Shown here piece by piece: positions 21,985-28,188 of a DNA stretch of 43,525 nt. The DNA is taken from the sequence record SRR20825019_3141. The stretch is one strand, 5' to 3'. A program made the position numbers and the translations under genes. Within the stretch, counting starts at the first letter, position 1. Each line of letters opens with the position of its first letter. Under the pieces are notes generated by a model. That model was given only the letters and a program-made list of their open reading frames with translations. It was not told the origin of the DNA and did no database searches.

Positions 21985-23703
21985 ATGAGTAAATTTTATT
22001 ACAATCAGGAGCAGGAATCCTACGATGCCATAGTGGTAGGTACGGGTATCAGCGGTGGTTGGGCTGCAAAAGAATTGTGCGAAAACGGTCTCAAGACTTT
22101 GGTCTTGGAGCGTGGCCCCATGGTAAAACACCGTGAAGATTACCCTACGGCCAATATGGACGATTGGGATTTTAAGCATGCGGGCAGAGCAACCCGAGAA
22201 GACGTTAAGCAACAAGAGAAACAATCCAGAACTGGTTATACCACCGGTGCAGCTTCAAAGCATTGGTTTGTAAACGACTTGGACCATCCTTACAACGAGA
22301 CCAAACGTTTCGATTGGATGAGAGGTTACCACGTAGGTGGACGTTCTATTATGTGGGGACGACACAGCTACAGGTGGAGCGACATTGATTTTACTGCAAA
22401 CAAAAACGAAGGAATCGCCGTTGATTGGCCAGTACGTTATAAGGATATAGCTCCTTGGTACGATAAAGTTGAAAGTTATATCGGGGTATCCGGTGAAAAT
22501 TTAGGTCTGCCTCAACTTCCCGATGGACAGTTTGAGCCCATGATGGAACTCAATTGTGTAGAGGACCACGTAAGAGGCAAGGTCGCCGAACATTTTGGTG
22601 GCCGTGTCATCACCGCAGGTAGGGTGGCCCACATAAACAGTGACAAACAGTTTGATGGTGACGGTCGGGTTCGTTGTCAATTTAGGAACCGTTGTATTAG
22701 AGGATGTCCTTTCGGAGCATATTTCAGCAGCGTTTCCTCTACATTGCCAGCTGCCGAAGCTACAGGAAACATGACGCTTAGACCGGATTCCATTGTACAC
22801 GAGGTAATCTATGACCCCAACACCAAGAAGGCTACAGGCGTTAAGGTCATCGATAGAGAAACCAAAGAAGAGTTTGAGTTCAAGGCAAAAGTTATTTTCC
22901 TATGTGCTTCTGCCATTGCTTCTACTTCCATTTTGATGCAATCCAAATCGGATAGGTTCCCTAATGGTTTAGGAAACGACTCCGGAGAATTGGGCCATAA
23001 TGTTATGGACCACCATTTCTTGGTAGGCGCATCCGGTAAGTTTGATGGGTATGAAGACAAATACTACAAGGGTAGAAAACCAAACGGAATCTACATCCCA
23101 AGATTTAGAAACCTTGGCGGTGATTCCGATATGAAAAACTTTAAACGTGGTTATGGCTACCAAGGGGGCGCAGGTAGAGGCAATTATGAAGAATTGATCG
23201 CGGAAGCTTCGTTCGGTAAAGATTACAAGGATGCCGTTCTTACCCCGGGAGGGTGGACAATGAACATGCTCGCGTTCGGTGAAACCTTGCCTTACCATGA
23301 TAACAAAATGACCTTGGATTACGACAAGAAAGACAAATGGGGGCTTCCTACCGTTACTTTTGATGCGGAAATTCGTGAGAATGAGCTGAACATGAGAAAA
23401 GACATGCAAGATCAAGCCGTTCAAATGCTCGAAAAAGCAGGCGCGAAAGACATTACCCCTTACGATGCGCCCTATGCATTGGGTCTAGGTATTCATGAAA
23501 TGGGTACCGCAAGAATGGGACGTGATCCAAAGACTTCCGTTGTAAATGGCAACAACCAAGTACACGGATGTGAAAACGTATATGTTACCGATGGCGCCTT
23601 TATGGCATCTGCAAGTTGTGTAAACCCATCGTTGACATATATGGCATTTACAGCAAGGGCTGCCAACCATGCTGCCCAAGAACTTAAAAAAGGAAATATA
23701 TAA
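21985..23703 (+). CDS. GMC family FAD oxidoreductase, copy 2
   Basis: Same motifs as 14402-16105 (GTGISGG, CQFRNRCIRGC, HEMGTARMG). Confidence 0.9.
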   Translation: MSKFYYNQEQESYDAIVVGTGISGGWAAKELCENGLKTLVLERGPMVKHREDYPTANMDDWDFKHAGRATREDVKQQEKQSRTGYTTGAASKHWFVNDLDHPYNETKRFDWMRGYHVGGRSIMWGRHSYRWSDIDFTANKNEGIAVDWPVRYKDIAPWYDKVESYIGVSGENLGLPQLPDGQFEPMMELNCVEDHVRGKVAEHFGGRVITAGRVAHINSDKQFDGDGRVRCQFRNRCIRGCPFGAYFSSVSSTLPAAEATGNMTLRPDSIVHEVIYDPNTKKATGVKVIDRETKEEFEFKAKVIFLCASAIASTSILMQSKSDRFPNGLGNDSGELGHNVMDHHFLVGASGKFDGYEDKYYKGRKPNGIYIPRFRNLGGDSDMKNFKRGYGYQGGAGRGNYEELIAEASFGKDYKDAVLTPGGWTMNMLAFGETLPYHDNKMTLDYDKKDKWGLPTVTFDAEIRENELNMRKDMQDQAVQMLEKAGAKDITPYDAPYALGLGIHEMGTARMGRDPKTSVVNGNNQVHGCENVYVTDGAFMASASCVNPSLTYMAFTARAANHAAQELKKGNI

Positions 23704-24356
23704 TGGAAAGAAGATCAGCACTTAAAAATATGGGATTGGCCTTCGGTTATGCCGTGGCCACGCCGACATTGTTATCGCTATTGCAGAGCTGTAAAGACAA
23801 ACCTGCATATGCGGAGTGGACACCTAGTTTCCTAAGCAAAGAACAAGGATATGCCATGGCTCAAACGTTGGATGTCATACTTCCAAAAACGGATACACCA
23901 TCTGCAACCGAGGTGAACGTGCATACGTTTATAGATGCCTATTTGGATGAAGTTATGCCATTGGACCAAAGGGAGTTTGTCGTCATGAAAATGAACAAGT
24001 TCTATGACAAGGTCTTGGCCGATTCCGGGAAAGAATCTTTAATGGATATTGAAGCTGCCGATATAGAGCCTGCATTGCAAGCCTATCTTAGAAAGCGTTC
24101 GGACGAAGAGGAAAAGGTACATTCTGAGGCCATAATGAACTATATGCAGGCCATAATGCAAGGAGGTGAGGCTAGTCTGGACGAAGATATTGCCCGATTC
24201 TCTTTTGCAAACGATCTGAGGGATTTGGCCACTTGGGCCTATAAATCATCAGAATATGTAGGTGAAGAGGTATTAGCTTATTTGCCAATTCCAGGTGAAT
24301 ATATCGGATGTGGCGACCTTGAAACCTTAACAGGTGGAAAAGCTTGGTCAATCTAA
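23703..24356 (+). CDS. Gluconate 2-dehydrogenase subunit 3 family, Tat lipoprotein
   Basis: ERRSALK twin-Arg, LQSC lipobox, ILPKTDTPSA, YLPIPG; start overlaps GMC stop. Confidence 0.85.
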   Translation: MERRSALKNMGLAFGYAVATPTLLSLLQSCKDKPAYAEWTPSFLSKEQGYAMAQTLDVILPKTDTPSATEVNVHTFIDAYLDEVMPLDQREFVVMKMNKFYDKVLADSGKESLMDIEAADIEPALQAYLRKRSDEEEKVHSEAIMNYMQAIMQGGEASLDEDIARFSFANDLRDLATWAYKSSEYVGEEVLAYLPIPGEYIGCGDLETLTGGKAWSI

Positions 24357-24380: not shown

Positions 24381-24411
24381 AAAAAACCTCCAAATTATTG
24401 GAGGTTTTTTT
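24381..24411 (+). terminator. Intrinsic terminator of the GMC operon (bidirectional form)
   Basis: AAAAAACCTCCAA-atta-TTGGAGGTTTTTT. Confidence 0.9.
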
Positions 24412-24423
24412 ATGTCGGTTTCT

Positions 24424-24645
24424 AAAAAAATACCCCGGATGTTCTGTTGTGGGGTGAACATTTCCGAGGTATTAAATCAATAAACACTATCACCTGTGCC
24501 ATTCTAGGCACAAAATAACTGTATACACAATACAGGAATATCTGTTGTATCGGCACAGTAATTTGTTGAAGATTTCCTAAAACGGTTTTAGTATCCTACG
24601 CTTTTCAGCGTGTGGAATCTACCTAATCTAGTTCTTGGGTCAACG
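24424..24645 (-). ncRNA. Candidate structured ncRNA (~220 nt)
   Basis: Several hairpins, a GAAA tetraloop on the minus strand (24598-24611), terminal hairpin plus U7 tail at 24424-24473; no convincing ORF. Confidence 0.5.
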
Positions 24646-24775
24646 CCGACAAAGATTTAAAAATACCTTGAGTTTTTAAAGATTCAACGCTAAAAACACC
24701 CGTAAAGTTTTTAACATAAAATGTTGAAATCTAGGCACTGGCTTAATTTGTAAGCAATACTTTACAAAATCTGTA

Positions 24776-24826
24776 AAAACAAAAAGACCAAGTAACATAT
24801 CAGTATGTTTACTTGGTCTTGCTTTT
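24776..24826 (-). terminator. Intrinsic terminator of the small-peptide transcript
   Basis: AAGACCAAGTAA/TTACTTGGTCTT 12-bp stem with A-tract on the left (U-tail on minus strand). Confidence 0.8.
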
Positions 24827-25057
24827 ATGATGAACCGGCTAAATAGTCAAATATTACCAAAGAGTACGGCCTCTTCAATCGAGCCTTACTAAATCTTTTT
24901 TTGTCCTAGGTAGTTCCCCCGAAACCTAAAATCAAATCCAGATTATGGCCAAACAGAAGTTAATTGTGCAAGCGGTTTATACAATCAAAAGATTGGTTGC
25001 CGTGGCCGTACAATTATTTGGTAATACAAAATTTTTAAGAGCTATCGTGTTACAAGA
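24827..25057 (-). ncRNA. Structured 3' region of the small-peptide transcript
   Basis: Long-range helix 24852-24871 with 25004-25026; internal hairpins at 24907-24928 and 24982-24995. Confidence 0.5.
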
Positions 25058-25177
25058 TTATTTCCTTGCAACAACCTTATTCCAATCGCTGCCCAATTGG
25101 GCGTTGTTCTTTTCTGATACTGCGGCGAAAAACAGGGCCGCTATCAAAATCAAAAACAATATTGCACATTTTTTCAT
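25058..25177 (-). CDS. Unannotated 39-aa secreted peptide precursor MKKCAILFLILIAALFFAAVSEKNNAQLGSDWNKVVARK
   Basis: Manual translation; MKK n-region, hydrophobic h-region, NNA|Q cleavage candidate; A-rich initiation context; -7 box upstream. Confidence 0.7.
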   Translation of the reverse strand: MKKCAILFLILIAALFFAAVSEKNNAQLGSDWNKVVARK

Positions 25178-25218
25178 TTTCTGGCTATTTCAAAATTGTC
25201 CTCTCATTTTTGACATGC

Positions 25219-25290
25219 CGAATATAGACAACTAAATTTCACACATATAATGCGTATGTATAAACTGTTCTGTTTTATGTATAATTGGTT
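25219..25290 (-). promoter_or_regulatory. Promoter of the small ORF with LytTR-type direct repeats
   Basis: TATATTCG -7 box (25219-25226); TATGTATAA repeated at 25255 and 25276 (21-bp period). Confidence 0.65.
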
Positions 25291-25381
25291 TTTGGGTATG
25301 GGAAACTAGCTTTAGCTTTTCTGTAAACTATAGTCCCAAACAGAAAAAACCAGTGATTTTTCACCTGATTCCCCTTTTTAT

Positions 25382-25451
25382 ACCAGTTATACGTGCTAAA
25401 TATCCATTAACACATTATTTTATTGCCATGTAGAGAATAATTCTAAATTTG
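25382..25451 (+). promoter_or_regulatory. Promoter of the LytTR/kinase operon with related repeats
   Basis: ACCAGTTATAC (25382) and degenerate TCCATTAACAC (25403), 21 bp apart; TAAATTTG -7 box at 25444-25451. Confidence 0.55.
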
Positions 25452-25470
25452 GTATAACCTATATTAGATT

Positions 25471-26205
25471 ATGCTAGAAGCAGTAATAGTTGATGACGAG
25501 ATAAAAGCCCTCCAAAGCCTAAGCTGGGAACTTACCAACTTGAGCGATGAAGTGGATATTATTGCATCTTTTACAGATGCCAGGGAAGCTTTGGACTATT
25601 TGGAAAAGAACACTCCCGATTGTCTATTTTTGGATATTGAAATGCCCGCAATGGACGGGTTCCAGTTTATAAAAAACTTGAAAAACAAGGATTTTCCGGT
25701 AGTCATTACTACAGCCTATAACCAATATGCCCTGCAGGCCCTAAAAAATGAGGCCATCGACTATCTCCTAAAACCCATAGACTCGGATGATCTGGAGGAA
25801 ACCATAGCCAAAATAAAAAAGTTCAACGCTAAAAATTTGACCGTTGAACGCTTGGAAAGAATTCTTCTTAACTTTAATTCGGAATCGCAAAGCAAAAAAA
25901 TAACCATCAATACGGACGGTAAATTGGTCTTTTTGAACAGCGATGAAATCCTGTATGCAGAATCGGATGGTAATTACAGTACTATTTTTTTAAAGGATGG
26001 ACAAAAAATCCTTCTCACGAAAAAATTGAAGGAAGTCAATGCTTTGTTGCCAGAAAGCAGCTTTTTTAGAATACACAACTCATATATAATCAATCTCAAC
26101 AAAATAAAAGAATTCCTCAAAACCGACGGCTATGTGGTTCTGGAATCCAATCATAAAATCCCTGTTTCCCGGCAAAAAAAATCCGACTTTTTGGATATGC
26201 TATAA
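25471..26205 (+). CDS. LytTR family response regulator
   Basis: REC domain (VDDE, FLDIEMP, YLLKP) plus LytTR domain (FFRIHNSYIIN, IPVSR). Confidence 0.95.
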   Translation: MLEAVIVDDEIKALQSLSWELTNLSDEVDIIASFTDAREALDYLEKNTPDCLFLDIEMPAMDGFQFIKNLKNKDFPVVITTAYNQYALQALKNEAIDYLLKPIDSDDLEETIAKIKKFNAKNLTVERLERILLNFNSESQSKKITINTDGKLVFLNSDEILYAESDGNYSTIFLKDGQKILLTKKLKEVNALLPESSFFRIHNSYIINLNKIKEFLKTDGYVVLESNHKIPVSRQKKSDFLDML

Positions 26206-26220
26206 TCTCAAAATGTTCCC

Positions 26221-28188
26221 GTGCCTATAGTAAAGTTCCTCCTTATCAAAAACCTGCATCGAGCGCGAACCGGGTCTCTGGTCACCTTTTTGCTGTTCTC
26301 CTTTTTATATACTTTACACGCTCAAAATCTCTCCGACGAGTTTATTGACAAAACGGAAATACTGGTAAAACTTAAACCCAAGACCTACGAGGCACTGGAT
26401 GAAGAGCTATCTTCCGAAAAACGGGACACCTCCTTATTAAGATACTTTGCCGACTTTAGCAAAAAAAACGACTATCTAGAAGGACAATCTTATGCCTTGA
26501 ACCAATTGGGCATGAAGTATCGGAACTTTTCCCAATATGAACAGGCCGTAGCATTGCACGAACAAGCCTTGGCCGCCTCTGAAAAAGCGAACAACATTGA
26601 TTTTAAAGTACTCAGTTTAAATATGCTAGGTGTGGTCTATAGACGTACCGATGGGATAAAGACCGCATTGGATTATCACCAAAAGGCGCTTGAACTGGCA
26701 GAACAAATAGAGAACCCATCCAACCATATTAAAAGAAGTATAAATGTTGCCCTGAATGGTATTGGAAACCTTTACCAAACTTTGGAGCAGTACGATTTGG
26801 CCATATTACAATTTAGAAGGGCATTGAAACTGGAAGAGGAACTGGGCAACAAACTGGGGTTGGCCATAAACCATCAAAATATTGGGCATTGCCTAGAGGA
26901 AAAGGGCGATTTGGAAGAGGCTCTGGAAAATTACAGGAAATCCTTGGCCTATAACGAGGAAATCGATTCGGAAGTAGGCCGTGTTATATGCAAGAACAGT
27001 CTGGCCCAAATCTATTTAAAACAGAACATGCCCTATTTGGCGTTGGTACTTTTAGAGCCCCTACATTCAGAATCCGAAAAAATAGGCGATTTCTCCGTAA
27101 CAGGCCTGGTGTATATCAATACGGGATGGGCACATACCAAATTGGGCAACTATGAGGAAGCAGAAACCTTTATCCAAAAAGGACTTACAATGGCGCAAAA
27201 CCGAAATATGCCCAGCAATATTTTGTATGCGTACGAAAAGATGTCCGATCTAGAAAACGCCAAAGGTGATTTTAAAAAAGCCTATGAGTTTTACAAAAAG
27301 GCCAGTGAACACGAAAAGGAGATTTCCAGTGCAACCAACCTACGGTACATGAACGATATTATCGTTAGGTACGAAAACGACAAGAAGAACAGCCAAATCG
27401 CAGTTTTGGCGAAAGAAAATGAAATCGTTCGGCTAAGGCTTAAAAAAAATCAGACAACTCTTCTGGTAAGTGCATTGATCGTTGGGCTTATTTCATCCAT
27501 ACTCTACATTCTTTACCGACAATACCAGAGTAAGAACGAGAAGAGGGTACTCACTTTGGAGCAACAAATGCTGCGCAGCCAAATGAACCCCCATTTCTTG
27601 TTCAACTCCTTGAACTCGATTAAGCTGTATATTATAAACAACGAGCAAAAAAATGCCGTTCATTATCTGAACAAGTTCTCCAAACTTGTCCGAAAAATTC
27701 TAGAAGCATCTTCCCAAAAGGAAATCCCGCTATCCGAAGAACTGGGAACCATGGAGCTATACATGAATATCGAAAATATCCGGTTCTCCAACGAAATAGA
27801 TTTTAAAATAGAAGTAGAAAAGAACATCAATATAGATAATATCAAAATTCCATCTTTGACACTTCAGCCTTTTTTGGAAAACTCCCTTTGGCATGGCCTA
27901 TCTCCCAAAGAAGGAGAAAAGAAAATTCAAATTAACGTGAAACACAAGGACCGAGGACACGTTACAATTGAAATTGTGGACAATGGTGTTGGGCGAACCA
28001 TGGCCGAGGTAAACAAAGAAAACCGTGTGCTAAAAAGGAAATCCTTGGGTATTCGCATTACCAAGGAACGATTGGCCAATTTTGCCAAAGACTATCAAAA
28101 CAAATTTGATGTGGATATCTTGGACCTGTTCGATGAGAACGGTGATCCCATTGGAACCAAAGTTGTGCTGGACATCCCCACTATCTAG
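26221..28188 (+). CDS. TPR-repeat sensor histidine kinase, LytS/His_kinase type
   Basis: N-terminal hydrophobic segment, multiple TPRs, one TM, SQMNPHFLFNSLN H-box, LQPFLEN, DNGVG. Confidence 0.92.
   Translation: MPIVKFLLIKNLHRARTGSLVTFLLFSFLYTLHAQNLSDEFIDKTEILVKLKPKTYEALDEELSSEKRDTSLLRYFADFSKKNDYLEGQSYALNQLGMKYRNFSQYEQAVALHEQALAASEKANNIDFKVLSLNMLGVVYRRTDGIKTALDYHQKALELAEQIENPSNHIKRSINVALNGIGNLYQTLEQYDLAILQFRRALKLEEELGNKLGLAINHQNIGHCLEEKGDLEEALENYRKSLAYNEEIDSEVGRVICKNSLAQIYLKQNMPYLALVLLEPLHSESEKIGDFSVTGLVYINTGWAHTKLGNYEEAETFIQKGLTMAQNRNMPSNILYAYEKMSDLENAKGDFKKAYEFYKKASEHEKEISSATNLRYMNDIIVRYENDKKNSQIAVLAKENEIVRLRLKKNQTTLLVSALIVGLISSILYILYRQYQSKNEKRVLTLEQQMLRSQMNPHFLFNSLNSIKLYIINNEQKNAVHYLNKFSKLVRKILEASSQKEIPLSEELGTMELYMNIENIRFSNEIDFKIEVEKNINIDNIKIPSLTLQPFLENSLWHGLSPKEGEKKIQINVKHKDRGHVTIEIVDNGVGRTMAEVNKENRVLKRKSLGIRITKERLANFAKDYQNKFDVDILDLFDENGDPIGTKVVLDIPTI

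Follow-up and report, generated by a model that had tools for sequence, protein, structure and literature searches.

A LytTR regulator and TPR-sensor kinase facing a putative target transcript with a mini-protein gene and a conserved structured RNA in marine Flavobacteriaceae

The analysed DNA belongs to a marine Flavobacteriaceae genome of 4.4 Mb that is 100% complete by marker genes. In the window (the whole stretch of 43,525 nt that was analysed, sequence record SRR20825019_3141), the genes for a response regulator and a sensor histidine kinase lie on the plus strand and are faced by a minus-strand unit of ~440 nt, which comprises a box pair, a -7 box, a small ORF, an RNA domain and a terminator. 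The combined anatomy of the locus is far beyond chance expectation. The features, with the basis of each in brackets, are:

24650..24736, minus strand: relic of the nrdB upstream region with the palindrome TTTCAACAT-N-ATGTTAAAA; the nrdBA of relatives is absent here (comparison)
24775..24820, minus strand: intrinsic terminator, 12-bp perfect outer stem and inner pairs, then UUUGUUUUU (hairpin arms, fold)
24849..25029, minus strand: structured RNA domain of ~180 nt with P1, P2, variable arms and an invariant hairpin (alignments, fold, covariation)
24909..24926, minus strand: invariant hairpin GGUUUCGGGGGAACUACC with a GGGG loop and a CU bulge (alignments)
25058..25177, minus strand: mini-protein gene, 39 aa, MKKC followed by ~16-17 hydrophobic residues and a polar tail (conservation, pN/pS)
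25226-25219, minus strand: -7 box TATATTCG of the small-ORF/RNA unit (conserved column block)
25289-25276 and 25268-25255, minus strand: strong LytTR-type half-site pair ACCAATTATACATA / ACAGTTTATACATA with a 21-bp period, before the small-ORF/RNA unit (36.5 bits)
25382-25395 and 25403-25416, plus strand: weaker LytTR-type half-site pair CCAGTTATA N12 CCATTAACA, toward the regulator gene (7.3 + 7.1 bits, 21-bp spacing)
25444..25451, plus strand: -7 box TAAATTTG of the predicted regulator/kinase operon promoter (sequence; conserved)
25471..26205, plus strand: response regulator with a receiver and a LytTR DNA-binding domain (Pfam)
26221..28188, plus strand: sensor histidine kinase with an N-terminal signal/anchor, a TPR array of ~370 residues, one TM segment, His_kinase (PF06580) and HATPase_c (Pfam, translation)

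Pfam analysis placed the regulator in the LytTR family (PF00072 at 6.7e-25, PF04397 at 2.3e-22) and the kinase in the LytS/YehU type (PF06580 at 1.1e-21), in agreement with an earlier note on this DNA, which had described such a pair divergent from the small unit. The kinase HATPase_c domain (PF02518) scored 21.6 bits, under the 26.4-bit cut-off, yet was at the expected place. The kinase translation showed an N-terminal hydrophobic segment ending in ...LHAQ and a second at approximately residues 413-435, preceding the kinase core; these two segments suggest that the TPR array lies outside the cytoplasm. The kinase orthologues (n = 32) were 40-85% identical in the alignment, and regulator orthologues of at least 75% identity were present in 24 of the 150 other genera sampled. 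The regulator was upstream of the RNA and divergent from it in 47 of the 48 loci with enough flank. In the single exception, L066, the RNA still occurs with the small ORF, the boxes and the -7 box, but without an adjoining regulator. To our knowledge, LytTR/TPR-kinase pairs are numerous in Bacteroidota and functionally unexplored.

LytTR regulators act on pairs of 9-bp direct repeats, imperfect in sequence and spaced by 12 bp, which gives a 21-bp period. The repeats with this spacing that the earlier note had seen at both promoters were present, and both pairs were conserved across genera when 32 diverse loci were aligned, which is consistent with LytTR targets. The two boxes of the unit read CCAnTTATACA, 21 bp apart. 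By position weight matrix, this dimer was the sole strong site in the 4.4-Mb genome (36.5 bits, compared with 19.1 for the next site and a maximum of 19.9 in the reversed-genome null), the matrix having been trained on these same sites, so that weaker genuine targets elsewhere would escape. Since the one strong genomic site stands before it, the small-ORF/RNA unit looks like the main output of the sensor system, much as RNAIII is in agr. ATACA-type paired cores 21 bp apart were found in 83 of 84 loci, with a regex that itself partly requires the ACA core. The conserved block of the weaker pair, read on the opposite strand of the 32-locus alignment, is TGTyAATGG-N12-TATAAyTGG, and this pair probably serves autoregulation of the regulator operon.

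The Bacteroidetes -7 box has the consensus TAnnTTTG. Across the 32 diverse loci, the -7 box of the unit, which had also been noted from the window, aligned as TAnnTT.G, with T, A, T and T conserved in at least 95% and G in at least 80%. It lies ~30 nt past the proximal half-site, without a conserved -33 element, and the transcription start of the unit is predicted at ~25208-25214, a few bases further on. The -7 box of the regulator/kinase operon was conserved in the same alignment as its reverse complement, CAAATTTA/CAAAAATA. A sigma-70 promoter scan gave 6 sites against 6.3 expected, the sigma-70 model being uninformative for this phylum.

The 39-aa ORF, whose conservation the earlier note had named as a check, was intact in 19 of 20 same-genus loci (39 aa in 18, 40 aa in one); the 20th, L019, covers another part of the spacer. 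A crude detector identified it in 73 of 84 loci across genera. The mean pN/pS of 0.34 indicated purifying selection, with 0.21 in the N-terminal half and 0.47 in the tail, and the variable columns numbered 30, 20 and 36, each out of 39, at the three codon positions. Within the genus, the motif SDWNKVV is preserved. In 32 orthologues, the hydrophobic segment was not followed by a consistent small-x-small cleavage site. Because that site is inconsistent after a segment of ~17 residues, a membrane-anchored mini-protein appears at least as likely as a cleaved, secreted peptide. The complex prediction for kinase residues 30-445 and the mini-protein, with alignments unused, had a score of 0.10 relative to a mark of 0.34 and counts neither way. 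A protein atlas search with the mini-protein returned weak look-alikes alone (0.77 or less).

An additional gene for a 180-aa beta-barrel protein was present in the same operon in most genera. This partner has no Pfam family. Its model (pLDDT 87.7) matched generic 8-stranded beta-barrels only (Foldseek E 0.005 or worse; VIA Z up to 9.5), and no function follows from these predicted structural matches.

The structured RNA that had been proposed for the unit was borne out by folding and by compensatory changes. The domain folded with z = -5.4 on the minus strand, G-U pairs were seen solely on the minus-strand reading, and its conservation exceeded that of the ORF, with the hairpin and P2 invariant across many genera. 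In the covariation alignment A4, which was fitted to the model's own structure, 93% of the cells were paired, and both-side changes were observed in 33 of 52 pairs, compared with 13.8 ± 2.5 in shuffles (0/500 reached 33) and 15 or fewer in slid controls. Structure-naive analysis with MAFFT and RNAalifold also arrived at P1, P2 and the hairpin; of its 22 pairs, 11 were compensatory. The terminator previously assigned to the unit has perfect 12-nt arms at 24784-24795 and 24809-24820 and a minus-strand T-run at 24783-24775; in 74 of 92 loci, a hairpin with a T-run was located no more than 170 nt past the RNA core. No promoter of the RNA's own was apparent, the exact TAnnTTTG occurring 7 times in 95 loci without a positional peak, and the RNA starts within ~10-25 nt of the upstream stop codon in several loci.

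No match to Rfam 15 was identified at 24820-25060 (E up to 1), in six loci of other genera (E up to 0.1) or in the sister-clade loci. The RNA is a family absent from Rfam and a strong candidate for a new class of RNA. The Rfam matches that were obtained sit at an unrelated terminator, at 24381-24410. Two known kinds of RNA were considered and rejected. For a CsrB-type protein sponge, CsrA (PF02599) was not found in the genome and the RNA has a single G-rich hairpin only. For an antiterminator, the 5' arm of the terminator resembles the 5' strand of P1, but by eye it is constant where P1 changes.

The exact 18-mer of the hairpin was present in at least 120 public-genome stretches; among the 80 matches listed, nearly all were from Flavobacteriaceae, and the genera included Maribacter, Flagellimonas/Muricauda, Robiginitalea, Eudoraea, Pricia and others. 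In a sister clade, the small ORF was missing from 5/5 loci, all of which carried the boxes and a short RNA-like block that is conserved, and the peptide is thus not a universal part of the arrangement.

Several known systems were compared with the locus. RRNPP receptors have a cytoplasmic TPR domain fused to an HTH or a phosphatase and bind re-imported peptides. The RRNPP parallel drawn in the earlier note did not hold, as the TPR array here is the probable extracytoplasmic part of a membrane histidine kinase. In the agr system, as described in an excerpt of PMC4227749, the LytTR regulator AgrA acts at P2/P3 on direct-repeat pairs upstream of two divergent promoters, in a 9-12-9 layout. In agr, one promoter drives the regulator operon and the other a short peptide-coding, structured regulatory RNA; a like arrangement is predicted for the present locus. 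The boxes, an ORF under selection, a covarying RNA and one terminator, with no separate promoter found, would amount to an RNAIII-like dual-function architecture. The differences are that the present locus is from Gram-negative Bacteroidota, that the kinase is of the PF06580 type with a presumably extracytoplasmic TPR array rather than AgrC, that AgrB and AgrD are lacking, that the product of the small ORF begins with a hydrophobic anchor, and that the RNA is unrelated to RNAIII in sequence and structure (Rfam: no match). The AgrB-type peptidase PF04647 was absent from a search of the whole, 100% complete genome, for which the control genomes did not include a staphylococcus. Of the proposed agr/RNAIII-like system, the architecture thus stood (the boxes, the divergent ORF/RNA unit and the unique strong site), whereas the missing AgrB, the sister clade without the ORF and the lack of a consistent cleavage site make a secreted autoinducing peptide read by the TPR domain less likely.

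CpxP feeds back on CpxA. According to an excerpt of PMC4817254, cpxP is the strongest-induced gene, is divergent from cpxRA, and has a 3' UTR that yields CpxQ up to the terminator, giving two effectors per transcript. The likeness lies in a divergent, here predicted, target that encodes a probable extracytoplasmic protein, with an RNA in the 3' region up to the terminator. In contrast, the Cpx regulator is OmpR-type and not LytTR, and CpxQ is short and Hfq-dependent while the RNA here has a multi-stem fold of ~180 nt known from sequence alone. As far as we know, Bacteroidota generally lack Hfq. By analogy, cpxP/CpxQ appears to fit the locus at least as well as agr/RNAIII. VirR, like AgrA, carries a LytTR domain. 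FasBCA-FasX of Streptococcus pyogenes and VirSR-VR-RNA of Clostridium perfringens are presented in an excerpt of PMC3673130 as agr-related systems with a regulatory RNA as the main output. Both differ from the present locus in being from Firmicutes and in having unrelated RNAs, and FasX is non-coding. No comparable Bacteroidota module was found in the literature searched (open-access papers and bioRxiv).

In the reading that we favour, and regard as moderately probable, the TPR-sensor kinase works with the LytTR regulator as a two-component system, and the divergent ~440-nt transcript is its conserved direct target and gives two products, a mini-protein and an RNA. A phosphorylated regulator dimer would bind the two CCAnTTATACA boxes ~30 nt upstream of the -7 box and activate transcription, and binding at the weaker pair before its own operon would provide autoregulation. 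The ORF and the RNA would be transcribed together. The first product would be the mini-protein of 39 residues, translated and most likely using its N-terminal helix as an inner-membrane anchor, its short polar tail lying outside, on the same side as the TPR array of the kinase; it may have an accessory role and possibly a feedback effect on the sensor. The second would be the 3' domain of ~180 nt, a conserved multi-stem RNA ending at the intrinsic terminator, which may be the non-coding output arm, either trans-acting or binding a ligand or protein, centred on the invariant GGGG-loop hairpin. The proposed logic is that of cpxP/CpxQ and agr/RNAIII. A bolder version holds that this is a Bacteroidota module uniting the counterparts of agr/RNAIII and cpxP/CpxQ, a periplasmic-TPR LytTR system with a bifunctional transcript as its sole strong target, that the exported tail of the mini-protein is read by the TPR array, either as a self-signal or as feedback, and that the 180-nt RNA with the invariant GGGG-loop hairpin is a new regulatory or ligand-sensing class carrying the output; it is offered tentatively and seems to us improbable.

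The ancestral place of the unit is upstream of nrdBA, which raises the alternative that the RNA is a cis-acting riboswitch or attenuator of nrdBA, left over here after the deletion of these genes. In 27 of 52 informative loci, nrdB was downstream on the same strand, ~330-700 nt past the invariant hairpin; it also follows the RNA in a same-genus relative and in 5/5 sister-clade loci, and this synteny could be a sign of a cis role. Furthermore, the P1-closed multi-stem fold is followed by an intrinsic terminator, as in transcription-attenuating riboswitches, and then by nrdBA in about half of the loci, and by reading, the terminator is conserved in sequence between genera to an unusual degree. 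We nevertheless judge this reading unlikely. In the other 25 informative loci, from several genera, nrdB was missing within 2.5 kb and the 18-mer and the P1/P2 stems were kept, a comparison that carries ascertainment bias because the loci were found through the 18-mer search. RNA model R1 scored alike in both groups (25-42 bits with nrdBA, 22-51 bits without). A leader is expected to be retained only with its regulated gene, whereas this RNA lies at a predicted mRNA 3' end and is equally conserved without a following gene. No close NrdB was identified in this genome (a divergent reductase is on another contig). Even so, at least 12 same-genus species share the nrdBA deletion, and among them the RNA core hardly varies. 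Where nrdB is present, ~200 nt including the conserved palindrome separate it from the terminator, suggesting a promoter/operator of its own. An alternative pairing covarying with P1, as in terminating riboswitches, was not seen; by eye, this includes the 5' arm of the terminator.

Two other readings centre on the mini-protein. It could be the effector, together with the beta-barrel protein elsewhere, as an MgrB/CpxP-like kinase modulator, and the RNA a mere structured 3' UTR that stabilises the mRNA or ends it, without a trans function. MgrB, a small membrane protein induced by and acting on its sensor kinase PhoQ, is a well-known case of this kind, and the purifying selection on the ORF and an RNA with no detectable promoter that in several loci directly adjoins the stop codon before it agree with it. 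The invariant 18-nt hairpin and invariant P2, however, far exceed what a stabilising 3' hairpin needs, the RNA is conserved more than the ORF, and the sister clade has the RNA-like block with no ORF; we give this explanation the same low probability as the nrdBA leader. The other, which was the inference of the earlier note, is an autoinducing (quorum-sensing) loop, in which a Sec-exported precursor is cleaved to a peptide of ~13-20 residues that builds up outside the cell and is bound by the kinase TPR array, with the RNA as an RNAIII-like effector. The N-terminus is signal-peptide-like, the tail varies in the manner of pheromone precursors and is still under some constraint, the motif SDWNKVV is preserved within the genus, the TPR array is probably on the same side of the membrane as the peptide, and box pairs at both promoters suggest positive-feedback wiring. 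Against this, the hydrophobic segment is long for a signal peptide and lacks a consistent cleavage site after it, a released peptide must also cross the outer membrane, an AgrB-like processing protein was not found in the genome, the sister-clade loci have boxes and RNA without the ORF, and the beta-barrel gene in the operon of most genera suggests an envelope module and not a dedicated pheromone gene. We consider the autoinducing loop quite unlikely and the least probable of these readings.

Two-component systems with an RNA output are textbook knowledge in Firmicutes (agr, fas, virSR) and enterobacteria (Cpx/CpxQ). The favoured two-component reading gives a LytTR/TPR-kinase pair a clear candidate target, with a defined DNA site, a mini-protein ORF and a structured RNA family that occurs in many marine genera and is present in ocean metatranscriptomes. 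It offers a way into the study of post-transcriptional regulation and envelope signalling in a group of ecological importance, and the invariant RNA motif invites structural and ligand studies. If the bolder version were true, a new regulatory or ligand-sensing RNA class would carry the output of the system in abundant marine Flavobacteriaceae.

The RNA-library data were assembled contigs, from which strand, ends and abundance are not readable; one run, X15, is a 10-kb contig and DNA-like, and for X16, X17 and X19 the lack of cover from 25223 onward is not readable as silence. Metatranscriptome contigs from three studies, starting at 24631, 24829 or 24871 and reaching 25196 or 25201, cover the ORF and the RNA, and none covers 25223-25500. 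Their ends at 25196-25201 lie close to the start site predicted for the unit, a weak hint that it is expressed.

The anatomy of this locus fits a two-component system whose direct regulon would be very narrow, namely itself and a bifunctional transcript. The unit and its promoters lie in a spacer of 1,115 bp upstream of the regulator gene, back to the gluconate 2-dehydrogenase subunit-3 gene. The features were as follows:

23703-24356, plus strand: gluconate 2-dehydrogenase subunit-3 gene
24381-24410: bidirectional terminator, a perfect 13-bp hairpin between A-runs and T-runs, beyond the end of the dehydrogenase subunit gene
24494-24650: junction of the nrdBA deletion
24650-24736: relic of the nrdB upstream region, with the palindrome TTTCAACAT..ATGTTAAAA left behind
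24820-24775, minus strand: terminator of the unit, hairpin and T-run
24849-25029, minus strand: structured RNA domain of ~180 nt after the stop codon of the open reading frame (ORF), from conservation, folding and covariation
25058-25177, minus strand: 39-codon ORF, intact in same-genus loci
25226-25219, minus strand: block 4, -7 box TAnnTT.G, ~30 nt beyond the strong pair
25289-25255, minus strand: block 3, the stronger pair, two CCAnTTATACA copies with a period of 21 bp
25383-25391 and 25404-25412, plus strand: block 2, 9-12-9 repeat pair adjoining the regulator -7 box
25444-25451, plus strand: block 1, regulator -7 box TAAATTTG
25471-26205, plus strand: response regulator, in which a domain search identified a receiver and a LytTR domain
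26221-28188, plus strand: histidine kinase of 655 residues with TPR repeats, His_kinase (PF06580) and an ATPase domain

The kinase gene lies downstream of the regulator gene after a gap of 16 bases. The translated kinase has a hydrophobic stretch at its N-terminus, whose last residues are ...LHAQ, and a second hydrophobic segment directly precedes the kinase core; the TPR array of ~370 residues is predicted to face the periplasm. As the named records with 94-98% regulator identity belonged to Flagellimonas (formerly Muricauda) species, the window's genome is most likely of the genus Flagellimonas, Flavobacteriaceae. Several weak Rfam matches at the bidirectional terminator were spurious.

Four conserved blocks (blocks 1-4) stood out when 32 diverse loci were aligned between the start codons of the regulator and the small ORF. 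The -7 boxes were read by the -33/-7 promoter rule of Bacteroidetes, and the box pairs by the 9-12-9 repeat rule of LytTR proteins. The box cores were paired at 21 bp in 83 of 84 loci. A weight matrix built on 112 distinct half-sites found one outstanding box dimer in the 4.4-Mb genome (36.5 bits; next best 19.1; reversed-genome maximum 19.9), although these sites had themselves served to train the matrix, so that weak sites may exist elsewhere. The regulator-side pair scored 14.4 bits with the same matrix. There was no conserved -7 box directly before the RNA (seven exact matches in 95 loci, with no positional peak), and P1, the helix that closes the RNA fold, begins ~10-25 nt after the upstream stop codon in several loci; co-transcription of the RNA from the boxed promoter would therefore be the simplest reading. 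For AgrA, direct repeats have been described ahead of two divergent promoters (PMC4227749).

The 39-codon ORF was intact in 19 of 20 same-genus loci, the twentieth covering another part of the spacer, and its product was 39 residues long in 18 loci and 40 in one. Across 18 ungapped coding sequences, the variable columns at codon positions 1, 2 and 3 numbered 30, 20 and 36 of 39, and the mean pN/pS was 0.34, with values of 0.21 over residues 1-20 and 0.47 over the tail. The small ORF is a real gene. A like ORF was present across genera in 73 of the 84 loci with the regulator upstream, as scored by a crude detector that misses at least one (locus L022 has the ORF by eye). The mini-protein follows the pattern M-[KR]-[KR]-C, then ~16 hydrophobic residues (F8 and L15 invariant) and a variable acidic or polar tail of 18-45 residues. 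Because the aligned orthologues share no consistent small-x-small cleavage motif after the hydrophobic stretch, the product is less likely to be a cleaved precursor than a membrane-anchored mini-protein, with its N-terminus inside and its tail outside.

Within the genus, the RNA domain was more conserved than the ORF. Its minus-strand fold had an energy of -77.7 kcal/mol (z = -5.4; plus strand, z = -4.5), and many predicted pairs switch G-U with A-U or G-C, which is allowed on the minus strand only. In an alignment of 17 RNA sequences from several genera, itself fitted to the model, 93% of cells were paired and 33 of 52 pairs showed changes on both sides, compared with 13.8 ± 2.5 in shuffles (none of 500 reached 33) and at most 15 with slid partners. 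P1, P2 and the invariant hairpin were also recovered by plain MAFFT and RNAalifold from 15 sequences, with 11 of 22 pairs compensatory. P1 (UAUUACC.AA / UUUGGUAAUA in the window) co-varies freely, and P2 (GUACGGCC / GGCCGUAC) is nearly invariant; the core also holds the CU-bulged hairpin UUUC-GGGG-GAA, together with variable arms. In 48 of 75 loci this hairpin is enclosed by an exact GTACGG...CCGTAC pair, and other loci have matching variants such as GTCGTAC. In 74 of 92 loci, the RNA is followed by a hairpin and T-run no more than 170 nt away.

No Rfam 15 family matched the RNA domain in the window or in the loci of other genera searched. The covariance model R1, derived from 19 sequences of the genus, matched, under strict filters, in six of 150 other genera sampled, once in each. 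The invariant 18-mer GGTTTCGGGGGAACTACC was found in at least 120 stretches of a species-representative genome collection, where by our own arithmetic ~17 chance matches are expected in 596 Gb; locus L089 looks like one of these. The 80 stretches listed were nearly all from Flavobacteriaceae, and their genera included Maribacter, Flagellimonas/Muricauda/Allomuricauda, Robiginitalea, Eudoraea, Pricia, Croceivirga, Croceitalea, Arenibacter, Sediminicola, Saonia and Spongiimicrobium.

The regulator lies upstream of the RNA on the opposite strand in 47 of the 48 loci whose upstream flank reached 2.3 kb or more. The sole exception was L066, in which the small ORF and RNA stay together with the boxes and -7 box beside unrelated genes. 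This Pricia metagenome-assembled genome (MAG) carries the module without an adjoining regulator/kinase pair (L066:5750-6520), with an hflX-like GTPase gene on its upstream side and, downstream, a large beta-propeller sensor-like ORF; this points either to control of the module in trans or to a misassembly of the MAG at this place. In most genera other than Flagellimonas, an extra gene of ~180 codons lies between the small ORF and the RNA, as seen at L024:1810-2364 (minus strand) and about 29 other loci (alignment A9). Its product belongs to no Pfam family and was modelled as an N-terminal helix and an 8-stranded up-down beta-barrel (pLDDT 87.7), with structure matches to generic barrels only.

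In a same-genus relative, the gene order is small ORF, RNA, terminator, nrdB, nrdA and the dehydrogenase gene. Among 52 informative loci, nrdB lies within 2.5 kb after the RNA in 27, the dehydrogenase gene follows directly in 19, and neither is present in six. Some same-genus relatives have the operon of the canonical class I ribonucleotide reductase, nrdBA, at this place (L029:1264-4867), and it is deleted in the window's genome and at least 12 related species. No close NrdB was found in the window's genome, which carries on contig C82 a divergent reductase (large-subunit-like and small-subunit-like ORFs of 596 and 439 aa). A divergent reductase is likewise carried by one close relative, and in two relatives with nrdBA the canonical enzyme is the only one. 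A purely cis role of the RNA on nrdBA is unlikely, because the invariant parts are kept in loci without nrdBA and the model scores are alike with and without it, in a comparison biased by the picking of loci via the invariant motif.

The regulator orthologues form two groups, one of at least 75% identity (24 of 150 genera) and one of 62-70%. In the former, a strong box dimer was present in 21 of 24 loci and the RNA motif in 17 of 24 within a 1.5-kb flank, possibly too short for the other seven. In each of five loci of the latter, the sister clade (L176-L180; regulator 67-69% identical), a strong box dimer was present (28-34.5 bits) and the small ORF was absent. These loci share a conserved block GAGTGATCGTGGGGATTCACT...GATTAAATGCTATTAATC, then a terminator and later nrdB, which is preceded by a second conserved element, AGTTTTAGTTAGTTTAGTTAATTATT with a hairpin. 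Neither block had an Rfam match. The first block, a possible homologue of the RNA here, likewise presents a G-rich loop, and it shows that the boxed promoter can apparently drive a non-coding product alone.

The closest analogues of the module are agr/RNAIII, the likeness drawn by the earlier note, as well as cpxP/CpxQ (PMC4817254) and FasA-FasX and VirSR-VR-RNA (PMC3673130). The further step of that note, in which the mini-protein would be secreted as an autoinducer and bind the TPR array of the kinase, is not favoured, because the ORF product has no consistent cleavage motif, AgrB was not found in the window's genome, and the sister clade does without the ORF. No CsrA was found in the window's genome.

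Six RNA runs contain part of the stretch. The contigs cover 24631-25201 in X16, 24871-25196 and 24434-24620 in X17, and 24829-25002 and 25005-25201 in X19; the 10-kb contig of X15, which spans the whole stretch, is probably DNA. The contigs of three studies end at 25196-25201, just within the transcript whose start is predicted at about 25208-25214, and 25223-25500 is uncovered in these; as the data are assembled contigs, these ends are a weak hint of expression of the unit. The separate 187-nt contig of X17 (24434-24620), from a metatranscriptome, is identical to the window; it has the relic nrdB promoter region on one side and the bidirectional terminator (24381-24410) on the other, and overlaps a 44-aa minus-strand ORF (24422-24556).
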